Assembly: GCF_000026545.1 (NCBI RefSeq) | Contig: NC_011601.1 | Strand: one strand, 5' to 3' | Source of the DNA: Escherichia coli O127:H6 str. E2348/69 | Lineage (GTDB): Bacteria > Pseudomonadota > Gammaproteobacteria > Enterobacterales > Enterobacteriaceae | DNA length: 64,000 nucleotides | Shown: positions 21,001 to 45,000 of the stretch, piece after piece | Layout: each line of letters begins with the position of its first letter | How positions within the stretch are numbered: the stretch's first letter is position 1 | Program-made: the position numbers

Positions 21001-24000
21001 GTTGACGGCGCAGCGCAGCTTGTGGAGCGCACAGCAGGAGCTGCTGGCACTGCAACTGACTGATTTTACAAACCGAATCACGCTCTGGCAGTCGCTGGGC
21101 GGCGGTATGTCATCACTCAAGTAAGGAATAATATGGCTAGAGTCTCTCTTTCATGGGCATTGATTCTTGGTCTTTTAGCCGGTATCGGCCCGATGTGTAC
21201 CGATCTTTATTTGCCGGCTTTGCCGGAGATGTCTGAGCAACTGGCGGCAACCACGACCATAACGCAATTAACCCTGACCGCATCACTGATTGGTCTTGGC
21301 GTCGGACAACTGTTATTTGGCCCTCTGAGCGACAAAATAGGGCGTAAACGTCCGTTAATCTTGTCGTTGTTATTGTTTATTGTTTCTTCCATTTTGTGCG
21401 CGACAACGAACAATATTTACTGGCTGGTGGTCTGGCGTTTTATTCAAGGGATCGCGGGGGCGGGTGGTTCGGTGCTCTCTCGTTCTATTGCTCGTGACAA
21501 ATATCAGGGAGTAACGTTGACCCAGTTTTTTGCGCTGTTAATGACGGTGAATGGCCTGGCACCGGTGTTGTCACCAGTGCTGGGCGGGTACATTGTTAGC
21601 ACTTTTGACTGGCGCACTTTATTCTGGGTAATGGCTGAAATTAGCACCGTACTGTTGCTGGGCTGCCTGTTATTTATTAATGAGACCTTGCCAGAAAATA
21701 AAAGGGGCTCATCATTGCTATTAACCGGACGAAGCGTGGTGCAGAACCGCCGTTTTATGCGCTTTTGCCTGATTCAAAGTTTTATGCTGGCCGGTTTGTT
21801 TGCATATATCGGCTCTTCGTCGTTCGTGTTGCAGAAGGAATTTGGCTTTAGTCCAATGCAATTTAGCCTGGTGTTTGGCCTTAACGGCATCGGACTTATC
21901 ATTGCTTCATGGATCTTCTCGCGCCTGGCGCGACGGATTAACGCGATGACATTGTTGCGAGGTGGCCTGATAGCGGCAATTTTGTGTGCATTGCTCACGG
22001 TCTTATGCGCATGGGTACAATTGCCCATTCCGGCACTGGTGGCATTATTTTTCACCATCGCATTTTGTAGCGGCATCGGCACTGTTGGCGGGGCAGAGGC
22101 TATGAGTGCAGTAGGGACGCAGGAATCTGGAACGGCGTCTGCGTTGATGGGGATGAGCATGTTTGTCTTCGGCGGTATAGCCGCGCCATTGTCGGGAATT
22201 GGCGGAGAAACACTGTTAAAAATGAGTCTGGCAATTACGGTGTGTTATACGCTGGCATTGCTGGTTGCTCTCACCAGAATCGACAATCAAAAGTAATGAA
22301 CACCTCATCCTGAGCTGTCTCTTGATCAGATCTCCTGATCAAGAGACTTCATCACCAGGTAACCCTCAACCATATCCTGAAGTCTGAACCAGCCATCCCA
22401 CATGACTACCCAACCGGGGCGACCGGTGCGTTTGCTGTCATGCCATCGCCCCAGTTTCGCCAGTTTCAGACAGGCCCATTTCAGTGTCGGCATCTGTGAC
22501 GGAAGCGGTTTTCCTTCCAGCTTAACCCACAGCAGTTTCCACTCTGTCGGCGTCAGTATTTTCTCACAGCTGTCATTTTGTGTTTCTTCACTGATACCGC
22601 CCTGCCGCAGGCCCAGCACCCGCACCGCGATAAACGCCTTGATAACCACCATGCGCTCGAGGTTATCCCGGGTCTGCATTCGCAGCGATTCCACACATGT
22701 ACCACCACTTTTCCACGCCTTGTGGTATTCCTCTATCAGCCAGCGTCGCTCGTAATGGCTGACGATACGTCGCGCATCGGCGGCACTCGCCACTTTTTCT
22801 GACGTCAGCAGATGCCAGCAGGCGCCGTCCTCTGCCTGCTCCCGGCAACAGACATACGTGAGCGGGAGCGCCTGGCCGCTGTTGTCGGGATTTTTTATGC
22901 TGACTTCGCTGTAACTGATGAACATCCGGGCCTGGCGGGCTGCCCGCCCGCCTTTTTGCATCACATTCAGCGTGTGGCTTCCCGCGGTTGCCAGGACTTC
23001 CGGCAGTTCGAAGAGCTTGCCGGGTGCTTCTTCCAGCCGGCGATTCTGTGCTGCACGCACCACGAAGCGCTGCCCGTGGCTGACTTTATAATGCAGGTAA
23101 TGCCAGATATCCGCTTCCCGGTCACAGACAGTGATTACCCGTTTCTGTATCTCCCCCAGCCGTTCGGCCATGCGCTCCGAAGCCTGCTGCCAGCGGTAAC
23201 TTTCTTTTTCTTCATAGGGACGTTCTTTTCGCTGGTGCTTAACACCGTAGGTGTCCGTGGCACGACTCCAGCGCTGCTGTTCGATAAGACCGACTGGCAG
23301 GGCGCTGTCGGGGGCGTACATCAGGACAGAGTGAGCCAGCAGCCCGCGCGTCTTCGGGTTAGTGGTGGTATTCCCCAGGTCATCAGATGCCGTACTGTGA
23401 CTGAAGTTAATGGTGGTGGTGTCTTCCAGCGCGAGGAGCAGCGGATGAGCCTCACATGCCCTTACAGTGGCGGTAAATCCGGCTTCGGCAATGGCTTGCG
23501 GGGACACAGACGGGTTACGTATCAGGCGGTACGCACCTTCAACCTGAGCAGTGGACTGGGATGATTTCACAATAGAAAGACCTGCATGCTGAGCGAGAGA
23601 AGAGGCCAGTGACACAAGGCGTCGTGTACGACGCGGATCACCGAGACGGGCATGTCCAAACTGCTCGTTAGCCCATGAATAACAATCAGAAAGTACCATA
23701 ACAGACCCGAAGAAAATGAAATATAAGAGAAGATCAACAGGTGAGGAAAAAGTTCAAAAAATCGCTGCCGGGGAGGAAGGAAACTACCGGATGGAAAGAG
23801 TCCCCCTAAAGCAGACTGACAGACATCACAAATCCCCGGGTGGGGATTTGTGTATAAGAGACAGATCCTGAGGGGGGCCTGTCAGGATGAGGTGCAAAAC
23901 ACTAACGGTCCTTACGCCACGCATCCGCCGTCAATGCCTCGCCAAAATGACCGGCGATCAGCCGTTTGGTGAGTTCATGCAGCGGCGATGCCAGCACATC

Positions 24001-42000: not shown

Positions 42001-45000
42001 AGCGTTAGATTATGCGCTTTATCACCTGCGCATCATGACGCCTGCCCACGATGAGCGCAGCAGCATTGCGGCGAAAGGTTTAACCGGCGAAGGCTACAAA
42101 GGCCACGTTTTCTGGGATACAGAAGTATTTTTGCTACCGTTCCATCTGTTTAGCGAACCGACGATTGCCAGAAGTTTACTGCGTTATCGCTGGCACAACT
42201 TGCCTGGCGCGCAGGAGAAAGCGCGACGCAACGGCTGGCAGGGCGCTCTGTTTCCGTGGGAAAGCGCGCGTAGCGGCGAAGAAGAGACGCCGGAATTTGC
42301 TGCCATTAACATTCGTACCGGGTTGCGGCAAAAAGTGGCCTCTGCGCAGGCGGAACATCATCTGGTGGCCGATATCGCCTGGGCGGTTATTCAATACTGG
42401 CGGACCATGGGGGATGAAAGTTTCATTGCTCATGAAGGCATGGCGCTACTTCTGGAGACGGCAAAGTTCTGGATTAGCCGCGCGGTGAGGGTTAACGACC
42501 GTCTGGAAATTCATGATGTTATTGGGCCAGACGAATATACCGAACATGTCAATAATAACGCCTTCACCAGCTATATGGCGTATTACAACGTCCAGCAGGC
42601 GCTGAATATCGCTCGTCAGTTTGGCTGTAGCGACGACGCGTTTATTCATCGTGCAGAAATGTACCTCAAAGAACTGCGGCTGCCAGAAATTCAGCCCGAC
42701 GGCGTTTTGCCGCAGGATGATTCGTTTATGGCTAAGCCGGTGATTAATCTGGCGAAATACAAAGCGGCGGCGGGGAAGCAAACCATTCTGCTGGATTATT
42801 CACGCGCAGAAGTGAACGAGATGCAGATCCTCAAACAAGCTGATGTGGTGATGCTCAATTACATGCTGCCGGAGCAGTTCTCAGCGGCATCGTGTCTTGC
42901 CAATCTGCAATTTTATGAACCGCGCACTATTCACGACTCGTCATTAAGTAAAGCAATCCACGGCATTGTTGCCGCACGCTGTGGCCTGCTGACCCAAAGT
43001 TATCAGTTCTGGCGCGAGGGGACTGAAATCGATCTTGGTGCTGATCCACATAGCTGTGATGACGGTATCCACGCTGCCGCAACTGGCGCTATCTGGCTGG
43101 GGGCGATTCAGGGTTTTGCCGGGGTGAGCGTGCGTGACGGTGAATTACATCTCAATCCGGCGTTACCTGAGCAGTGGCAACAGTTGTCTTTCCCTCTGTT
43201 CTGGCTGTCTCTTATACACAAATCCCCACCCGGGGATTTGTGATGTCTGTCAGTCTGCTTTAGGGGGACTCTTTCCATCCGGTAGTTTCCTTCCTCCCCG
43301 GCAGCGATTTTTTGAACTTTTTCCTCACCTGTTGATCTTCTCTTATATTTCATTTTCTTCGGGTCTGTTATGGTACTTTCTGATTGTTATTCATGGGCTA
43401 ACGAGCAGTTTGGACATGCCCGTCTCGGTGATCCGCGTCGTACACGACGCCTTGTGTCACTGGCCTCTTCTCTCGCTCAGCATGCAGGTCTTTCTATTGT
43501 GAAATCATCCCAGTCCACTGCTCAGGTTGAAGGTGCGTACCGCCTGATACGTAACCCGTCTGTGTCCCCGCAAGCCATTGCCGAAGCCGGATTTACCGCC
43601 ACTGTAAGGGCATGTGAGGCTCATCCGCTGCTCCTCGCGCTGGAAGACACCACCACCATTAACTTCAGTCACAGTACGGCATCTGATGACCTGGGGAATA
43701 CCACCACTAACCCGAAGACGCGCGGGCTGCTGGCTCACTCTGTCCTGATGTACGCCCCCGACAGCGCCCTGCCAGTCGGTCTTATCGAACAGCAGCGCTG
43801 GAGTCGTGCCACGGACACCTACGGTGTTAAGCACCAGCGAAAAGAACGTCCCTATGAAGAAAAAGAAAGTTACCGCTGGCAGCAGGCTTCGGAGCGCATG
43901 GCCGAACGGCTGGGGGAGATACAGAAACGGGTAATCACTGTCTGTGACCGGGAAGCGGATATCTGGCATTACCTGCATTATAAAGTCAGCCACGGGCAGC
44001 GCTTCGTGGTGCGTGCAGCACAGAATCGCCGGCTGGAAGAAGCACCCGGCAAGCTCTTCGAACTGCCGGAAGTCCTGGCAACCGCGGGAAGCCACACGCT
44101 GAATGTGATGCAAAAAGGCGGGCGGGCAGCCCGCCAGGCCCGGATGTTCATCAGTTACAGCGAAGTCAGCATAAAAAATCCCGACAACAGCGGCCAGGCG
44201 CTCCCGCTCACGTATGTCTGTTGCCGGGAGCAGGCAGAGGACGGCGCCTGCTGGCATCTGCTGACGTCAGAAAAAGTGGCGAGTGCCGCCGATGCGCGAC
44301 GTATCGTCAGCCATTACGAGCGACGCTGGCTGATAGAGGAATACCACAAGGCGTGGAAAAGTGGTGGTACATGTGTGGAATCGCTGCGAATGCAGACCCG
44401 GGATAACCTCGAGCGCATGGTGGTTATCAAGGCGTTTATCGCGGTGCGGGTGCTGGGCCTGCGGCAGGGCGGTATCAGTGAAGAAACACAAAATGACAGC
44501 TGTGAGAAAATACTGACGCCGACAGAGTGGAAACTGCTGTGGGTTAAGCTGGAAGGAAAACCGCTTCCGTCACAGATGCCGACACTGAAATGGGCCTGTC
44601 TGAAACTGGCGAAACTGGGGCGATGGCATGACAGCAAACGCACCGGTCGCCCCGGTTGGGTAGTCATGTGGGATGGCTGGTTCAGACTTCAGGATATGGT
44701 TGAGGGTTACCTGGTGATGAAGTCTCTTGATCAGGAGATCTGATCAAGAGACAGCTGTTCTGGCAGGGCTGCGAATTACAGGTCACTCTCGACGCGCAGC
44801 GTATTGCGATTCGAACTTCTGCGCCCGTTTCACTGCGCTTGAACGGTCAGCTTATTTACGTCGCTGAAGAATCTGTTTTCTGTTTGGGGGATTTTATTTT
44901 GCCCTTCAATGGGACCGCTACCACACATCAGGAGGGTGAATGAAACTGCAAGGGGTAATTTTCGATCTGGATGGTGTAATCACCGATACCGCGCATCTGC

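Follow-up and report, generated by a model that had tools for sequence, protein, structure and literature searches.

Two inverted copies of ISEc13 around the sap-psp-ycj region of Escherichia coli E2348/69

We have analyzed a stretch of 64,000 nucleotides from the chromosome of the enteropathogenic Escherichia coli (EPEC) O127:H6 strain E2348/69 (NC_011601.1), referred to here as the window, in which two copies of an insertion sequence (IS) lie in inverted orientation around the sap, psp and ycj genes. The window corresponds base for base to positions 1463214-1527213 of NZ_LT827011.1, running from acnA to ogt, and this sequence was the source of the RefSeq annotation used. An earlier note, made from the sequence of the window, described the pair as identical IS50-like elements bracketing 19.3 kb in an inside-out arrangement, and took them to be independent, recent insertions. 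With about 30 copies of this IS in the reference genome, the pair is an already known, annotated and ordinary feature. Further work may be worthwhile only on the target-site pattern of the element and its relatives.

The element pair and its ends

The features of the locus are collected in Table 1. The elements, both of which we call ISEc13 for reasons given below, are designated copy A (left) and copy B (right). Each has an outside end (OE) and an inside end (IE), named by their correspondence to the ends of IS50, and a transposase encoded by an open reading frame (ORF) of its own. The gene content between the copies agrees with the RefSeq annotation of the identical sequence.

Table 1. Coordinates of the ISEc13 pair, its target sites and associated features in the window
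Feature	Position	Strand	Remarks
ISEc13 copy A	22315..23864	-	1550 bp; IE end 22315 (outer), OE end 23864 (inner); end 19-mers located
ISEc13 copy B	43205..44754	+	1550 bp; OE end 43205 (inner), IE end 44754 (outer)
Transposase gene, copy A	22326..23699	-	457 aa; single ORF (ORF list)
Transposase gene, copy B	43370..44743	+	457 aa; same as copy A transposase
Bracketed segment	23865..43204		19,340 bp: sapFDCBA, ymjA, puu-region remnant, pspF, pspABCDE, ycjMNOPQRS, 5' part of ycjT
Target-site duplication, copy A, outer	22307..22314		ATCCTGAG, 8 bp; single copy at empty site of AP029605.1
Target-site duplication, copy A, inner	23865..23872		ATCCTGAG
Target-site duplication, copy B, inner	43196..43204		CTGTTCTGG, 9 bp; single copy in uninterrupted ycjT region of AP029605.1
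Target-site duplication, copy B, outer	44755..44763		CTGTTCTGG; followed by ycjT 3' remnant, then pgmB
Left arm of 13-bp-stem hairpin	22301..22313	+	CACCTCATCCTGA; between convergent MFS efflux gene and sapF; right arm now at 23882-23894
ycjT (kojibiose phosphorylase gene), codons 1-696	41117..43204	+	truncated by copy B; ORF reads 12 IS codons and stops at 43243
OE-proximal hairpin	43217..43242	+	CACAAATCCCC-ACCC-GGGGATTTGTG; copy A equivalent 23827-23852; between end and transposase start
IE-proximal hairpin	44722..44752	-	copy A equivalent 22317-22347; IE nucleotides 3-15 pair with internal inverted copy over last transposase codons

By direct string comparison copies A and B are identical, as reverse complements, at 1550 of 1550 bp. 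When positions 22215-23964 are aligned with 43105-44854 in reverse complement, one continuous block of identity is seen, with unrelated sequence on either side. A repeat finder returned a single inverted pair, whose arms at 22313-23864 and 43205-44756 are 100% complementary and 19,340 nt apart; its match extends over 1552 rather than 1550 nt because both flanks by coincidence end in AG. The terminal 19-mers, CTGTCTCTTGATCAGATCT at the IE and CTGTCTCTTATACACAAAT at the OE, each occur twice in the window, where none would be expected by chance, and both ends start CTGTCTCTT. The earlier note had claimed identical transposase translations, two 1550-bp elements with the same termini, and an interior running from sap through ymjA and psp to ycjM and a truncated ycjT, and all of this is borne out, with no divergence between the copies.

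Elements in E2348/69 that are 100% identical to the window copies bear the RefSeq name 'IS4-like element ISEc13 family transposase', the comparison being with copies so labelled by RefSeq and its annotation pipeline PGAP rather than with the ISfinder reference sequence. By the convention of ISfinder, isoforms share more than 95% nucleotide identity. Many other E. coli contain copies with 98-99.9% identity to those in the window. The transposase scores 514 bits against the NCBIfam model for IS4 family transposases (NF033590, cut-off 160) and matches the structures of Tn5 transposase with E = 6e-84. Alignment with the Tn5 of plasmid pO86A1 gave 41% identity at the protein and 53% at the DNA level. 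In this alignment D93, D193 and E323 correspond to the DDE residues D97, D188 and E326 of Tn5, while Y316, R319 and K330 correspond to Y319, R322 and K333 of the YREK motif. The IS50 subgroup is described in Table 1 of the IS4-family review (PMC2266710) as comprising elements of 1350-1550 bp with ends that start 5'-CT and have the consensus CW------Y---CA-A--W-, and the same source gives target duplications of 8-9 bp. ISEc13 has all of these properties, i.e., a DDE transposase that is encoded by one ORF and has the Y-(2)-R-(3)-E-(6)-K signature, the size, the CT ends and duplications of 8-9 bp. On grounds of sequence, both elements in the window are to be regarded as copies of ISEc13, belonging to the IS50 subgroup of the IS4 family, and are already annotated. 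Homology of the transposases, retention of the DDE and YREK residues and near-identity of the ends bear out the description 'IS50-like'.

The resemblance to IS50 and Tn5 is closest at the ends. ISEc13 and IS50 have one and the same IE 19-mer, with two GATC sites in it; their OE 19-mers agree at 17 of 19 positions and differ at positions 4 and 18. In both elements the transposase gene reads in the direction from OE to IE and has its stop codon within the IE, and the target duplications are of about 9 bp. The differences are as follows. ISEc13 makes duplications of either 8 or 9 bp, it has stable hairpins just inside both of its ends where IS50 has neither, and it has a strong CCCC-N-GGGG target consensus, while that of Tn5 is weak; Goryshin and colleagues, whose paper of 1998 is cited in PMC1525189, reportedly described the latter as A-GNTYWRANC-T. 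The pair in the window also has its IE ends outside and its OE ends inside, and carries no accessory genes. Two smaller observations concern the transposase and the OE. Met56, the start of the Tn5 inhibitor protein (Inh), aligns with Gln52 of ISEc13, where there is no methionine, and an Inh-type protein is therefore not obviously encoded. Position 4 of the OE is a T in ISEc13, and the engineered hyperactive 'mosaic end' shares this base.

The polarity of the pair was established by comparing the positions of the end 19-mers with those in the real Tn5 of pO86A1. There the OE lies at the outer boundaries (6501 and 12320) and the IE at the inner ones (8034 and 10787), in agreement with the arrangement given for Tn5 in PMC3347997. 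In the window the ends are placed the other way round (Table 1) and both transposase genes read outward; the inside-out arrangement claimed by the earlier note is thus correct. GATC occurs at positions 10 and 15 of the ISEc13 IE, and the OE has none. For IS50, Dam methylation lowers the use of the IE (Yin et al. 1988, as cited in PMC3347997).

The two copies differ in their effect on the genes around them. Copy A lies between the stop codons of a gene for a major facilitator superfamily (MFS) efflux protein, at 22296, and of the convergent sapF, at 23902, and interrupts no coding sequence. The corresponding empty site, whose hairpin copy A now splits, folds strongly, the two strands giving -27.7 kcal/mol (z = -5.6) and -28.0 kcal/mol (z = -6.4). 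A simple terminator scan flagged a small inner hairpin only, the full 13-bp stem being seen by folding. There is no clear T-run, and for that reason we call this hairpin terminator-like rather than a proven terminator. Copy B, by contrast, interrupts ycjT after codon 696 and inactivates the gene. RefSeq gives ycjT as a pseudogene missing its C-terminus, with the 3' remnant as a partial ORF. Downstream on the same strand are pgmB, ycjV (encoding an ATPase of the ATP-binding cassette type) and ompG, on which the insertion is probably polar. The gene is also inactivated, independently and by a frameshift, in the closest ISEc13-free genome (AP029605.1, at 19557-21825 of the extracted locus L002), and ycjT may be dispensable in this clade.

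Origin of the pair and its potential for rearrangement

AP029605.1 was used as the reference for the empty sites. The nearest element-free genomes have 98.1% identity to the region, which they cover in three colinear pieces. In AP029605.1 the left site reads ...CACCTC ATCCTGAG GGGGGCC... and the right site ...TTTCCCT CTGTTCTGG CAGGG..., each with a single copy of the sequence that is duplicated in the window. Gene order within and outside the bracket is the same as in IS-free E. coli strains. The two copies are two separate insertions and not a transposed composite, because their 8-bp and 9-bp duplications are separate, both empty sites are present in a relative and synteny is kept; no other reading fits. 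The earlier note had argued in the same direction from the flanking repeat belonging to each copy, and the comparison with a genome free of either copy gives its proposal a firmer footing. Elsewhere the duplications of ISEc13 are of 8 bp at seven sites and of 9 bp at four (11 other copies). We considered whether the 8-bp duplication of copy A might be a damaged 9-bp one that had lost a G from its G-run; this is unneeded, 8 bp being the commoner length.

Full-length copies of ISEc13 were found by megablast in 873 of 5,426 complete E. coli genomes. Using 300-bp queries spanning the junctions, both insertion junctions were found in only three of the 5,426, all of them E2348/69, which fits the claim of the earlier note that the insertions are recent. 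In these three separately deposited assemblies the whole 24.9-kb region is a single colinear match of 100% identity. The assemblies (CP059840.2, LT827011.1 and LT903847.1) differ in the number of chromosomal places occupied by ISEc13 (30, 29 and 27, respectively, with two more on a plasmid) and in the size of the chromosome (4.94, 4.85 and 4.79 Mb), which suggests ongoing transposition or IS-associated deletions in the laboratory lineages.

The history that we propose is a simple one. ISEc13 would have expanded to about 30 copies in the E2348/69 lineage, and two cut-and-paste insertions during that expansion would have made the pair. Each copy would have landed at a site fitting the preference of the element (a C-run, 8-9 bp and a G-run; see below), and the inverted orientation with the IE ends outward would have arisen by chance. 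We consider it very probable that this is what happened, and nothing that we have met contradicts it. It has some limits. The recent timing is drawn solely from sequence identity and from the junctions being confined to a single strain lineage. As descendants of one original isolate, the three assemblies serve to confirm the structure rather than as independent evolutionary samples. The Dam sensitivity of the ISEc13 IE is extrapolated from IS50, and the polarity on pgmB to ompG from the operon layout.

Two identical inverted IS copies around a segment are the general architecture of Tn5 or Tn10, and the pair might accordingly be the boundaries of a 22.4-kb composite transposon that moved whole into the locus by its outer IE ends with sap-psp-ycj as cargo. 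The inverted pair is, however, all that is shared with a Tn5-type composite; there is no unit-wide duplication, no foreign cargo and no OE on the outside. The outermost flanks are different (CATCCTGAG on the left and CTGTTCTGG on the right), each IS has instead its own duplication matching a single-copy empty site, and the supposed cargo and the flanks outside it keep the order and orientation seen in thousands of IS-free E. coli genomes. The outer ends are moreover IE, with two Dam sites each. The composite reading is refuted by the existence of the empty sites in AP029605.1, and we give it next to no credence. A collapsed or misplaced repeat, which the earlier note had recognized as a possible flaw, would make the bracketing an artefact of assembly, and some 30 identical copies in one genome provide just the setting in which assemblers err. 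Yet the identical 24.9-kb structure is present as one piece in each of the three assemblies, and all four junctions bear the duplications predicted by the empty sites, which a misjoin would not give. The bracketing structure is upheld, and an artefact is exceedingly improbable.

The segment could also have been inverted already between the copies, or be present in mixed orientations acting as a switch. The perfect 1550-bp inverted repeat is adequate for RecA, IS-flanked inversions are common in E. coli, and some copies of ISEc13 or its relatives elsewhere have no duplications or have swapped flanks. At this locus, on the other hand, each copy retains an inner flank that matches its outer one; the swapped pairing of ATCCTGAG with CCAGAACAG across one copy, which would be the signature of a past inversion, is not present. 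IS-free genomes and the three E2348/69 assemblies are all colinear with the interior, both breakpoints would lie inside the IS copies, and there is no sign that orientation alters expression in a useful way. We judge an existing inversion to be highly unlikely. Finally, the positions of the copies might have been selected, for example if inactivating the ycj sugar operon was adaptive, or if sap or psp expression was altered, in a laboratory or host lineage. That ycjT is frameshifted in the closest IS-free relative too hints at a gene that is dispensable or counter-selected. Against this, copy A interrupts no gene, and both sites fit the sequence preference of ISEc13, which is enough to account for the positions; selection seems to us very unlikely to have placed them. 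Two separate insertions into preferred sites thus remain the explanation that we favor.

What the pair might do in the future is a different matter. A perfect repeat of 1550 bp is an ample substrate for RecA, and inversion is therefore possible in general; homologous recombination between the copies could flip the 19.3-kb segment, and the earlier note's suggestion to this effect is sound in general terms. Recombination between inverted IS copies inverts the DNA between them and leaves no signal in short reads (PMC5009759), and inverted IS pairs are the typical boundaries of long inversions in E. coli (PMC5372343). The latter study places E2348/69 in scaffold Group 1, together with K-12 MG1655. 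With long inverted IS copies around a segment of more than 10 kb, the pair presents the standard substrate of these inversions, and it differs from them in that none has been observed at the sap-psp-ycj locus of E2348/69: the three assemblies that carry the pair are all colinear.

Movement as a unit appears less favorable. With two GATC sites in each outward-facing IE, a composite using its two outer ends would be expected to be a poor transposon in a dam+ host. An inverted pair of IS elements also offers alternative pairs of ends, and the resulting inverse transposition is established for Tn10 and Tn5. Here synapsis of the inward-facing OE ends would make the 19.3 kb the donor backbone, such that the segment could be deleted or rearranged. 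The pair resembles Tn5- and Tn10-type composites in having inward-facing ends able to use the bracketed DNA in this way; unlike for those composites this is a prediction only, and no product of inverse transposition was found. Elsewhere, two copies of ISEc13 have no duplication, one in E. coli CP148541.1 (L011) and one in a prophage contig (L020). Two copies in Alishewanella jeotgali (L109 and L110) have reciprocally swapped flanks and lie on two different draft contigs. We did not accept this swap as direct proof of inversion between copies, as a misjoin is possible in drafts, and keep it as a lead.

The practical consequence is that, in the EPEC reference strain, a perfect inverted repeat of 1.55 kb encloses sap-psp-ycj and ycjT is knocked out. 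This is relevant to the engineering or resequencing of E2348/69, where an inversion would be invisible to short reads and the ycj sugar pathway is defective.

Target choice and end hairpins of ISEc13 and its relatives

The preference of ISEc13 for its targets was examined using ten copies from CP148541.1, together with prophage contigs that contain an OE or IE junction (loci L004-L030 and L112-L124). Among 43 distinct flanks, C is found at positions -13 to -10 in 63-95%, on the OE and IE sides alike, and position -9 is T or C. The enrichment of C at position -12 has a binomial p = 2e-20, and CCC within -14 to -9 is present in 37 of the 43 flanks, compared with 3.7% of random positions in the window. 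These flanks define a strong and symmetric target consensus for ISEc13, 5'-CCCC(T)-N8/9-(A)GGGG-3', the symmetry following from the OE and IE flanks giving the same half-site. It is a well-supported observation of uncertain novelty. Both copies in the window conform: the flanks are CCCCC and ACCTC for copy A (22302-22314 and 23865-23877), and CCCTC and CCTGC for copy B (43192-43204 and 44755-44767).

The left site has the strong hairpin described above, while folding of the empty site of copy B gave no significant hairpin (z = 0.6). As this target was used without one, it seems that ISEc13 recognises the C/G-run sequence rather than secondary structure. The preference also produces hot spots. 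The same prophage sites, GCCCCT-GTTTATGC-AGGGGC and GCCCCT-CCGCACAG-GGGG, are occupied in opposite orientations in different contigs (L009 compared with L021 and L123, and L019 and L022 compared with L117), and these are independent events.

Palindromic targets have precedents in the IS4 family, i.e., GGG-N5-CCC for IS231A, GGGG-N6/7-CCCC for IS186 and NGCTNAGCN for IS10. ISEc13 resembles these in having a symmetric consensus of GC runs around or across the duplicated bases, as a two-fold symmetric transpososome predicts. It differs in that the polarity is opposite, with the C-run 5' and the G-run 3', and in that the spacing is other, the runs lying just outside the 8-9-bp duplication. Among the works cited in the IS4-family review is one on the target specificity of IS231A, and the text of the review, Figure 3 aside, gives no such targeting for the IS50 subgroup (PMC2266710). 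We found no description of the ISEc13 consensus in the searchable literature.

More distant relatives were collected by their exact match to the 23-bp OE end, which gave 81 loci (L031-L111) in species-representative genomes. Their hosts are Vibrio, Shewanella, Neiella, Aliagarivorans, Alishewanella, Rheinheimera, Photobacterium and Aeromonas, and their transposases are about 50% identical to that of ISEc13. Their 77 distinct OE flanks have an A-tract at -19 to -15 (61-87% A), followed by G or C from -14 to -8, an AT-rich stretch from -7 to -4, a G at -2 and a C at -1. Few of the sites are complete; these are terminator-like palindromes in which the duplication is centered on the loop, such as AAAAAAACCCCGCC-AAC-GGCGGGG. 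An ORF of 120 aa or more that lies on the transposase strand and ends 23-80 nt upstream was present in 41 of 76 cases. An orientation bias, seemingly indicated by the A-run on the OE flank at almost all of the 77 sites, was considered and dropped. The targets of the relatives are often palindromic and include both A and T tracts, and an A-run on the left flank is therefore expected in either orientation. The ORF context (41 of 76 co-directional) does not discriminate in this respect either.

The hairpins inside the ends are likewise shared. The OE-proximal hairpin of ISEc13 has a folding energy of -22.1 kcal/mol (z = -5.3). In the relatives its stem is kept while the loop varies, and a run of six or seven T follows the stem, giving it the form of a canonical terminator reading inward. 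The IE-proximal hairpin (-21.3 kcal/mol, z = -4.4; repeat family D1) is conserved in the relatives as a 9-bp version. Alignment with the Tn5 of pO86A1 revealed neither hairpin in IS50.

A tentative suggestion, and one that we ourselves hold to be rather doubtful, is that ISEc13 and its approximately 50% identical relatives do not insert at random, but may choose symmetric GC-stem sites (in the relatives, terminator-like palindromes made of an A-tract, a GC stem and an AT loop), and may carry an inward-reading terminator of their own at the OE. If this were true, insertion would tend toward intergenic terminators downstream of genes, the transposase would be shielded from read-through, and the positions of both copies in the window would follow from the preference. 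According to a preprint of 2025-26 (10.1101/2025.07.22.666184), terminator-like sequences are in general overrepresented just upstream of ISs and within them, and ISEc13 and its relatives would be a concrete example behind this enrichment. Tn5 transposase has become the workhorse of tagmentation because its insertion is nearly random. Comparison with a natural homologue that has nearly the same ends and a strong symmetric consensus would be useful in understanding how the Tn5 fold reads its target DNA. If the suggestion were both true and undescribed, such a homologue would be a natural target-selective variant of this scaffold.

Other features of the window

Some observations concern the window outside the elements. 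A transposase gene of IS200C lies between pdeR and rnb (9622-10080, minus strand), and yciW (12267-13393, minus strand) is annotated as a frameshifted pseudogene. From fabI to sapF (14804-22296, plus strand) there are genes for a TetR regulator, an adaptor and a permease of the resistance-nodulation-division (RND) type, an outer-membrane channel and the MFS efflux protein; in K-12 this interval presumably contains only ycjD. Between ymjA and pspF there is a partial ORF of 108 bp on its own (29876-29983, minus strand), with the same layout in AP029605.1. In K-12 the puu putrescine-utilisation cluster lies at this position; here the cluster is absent.

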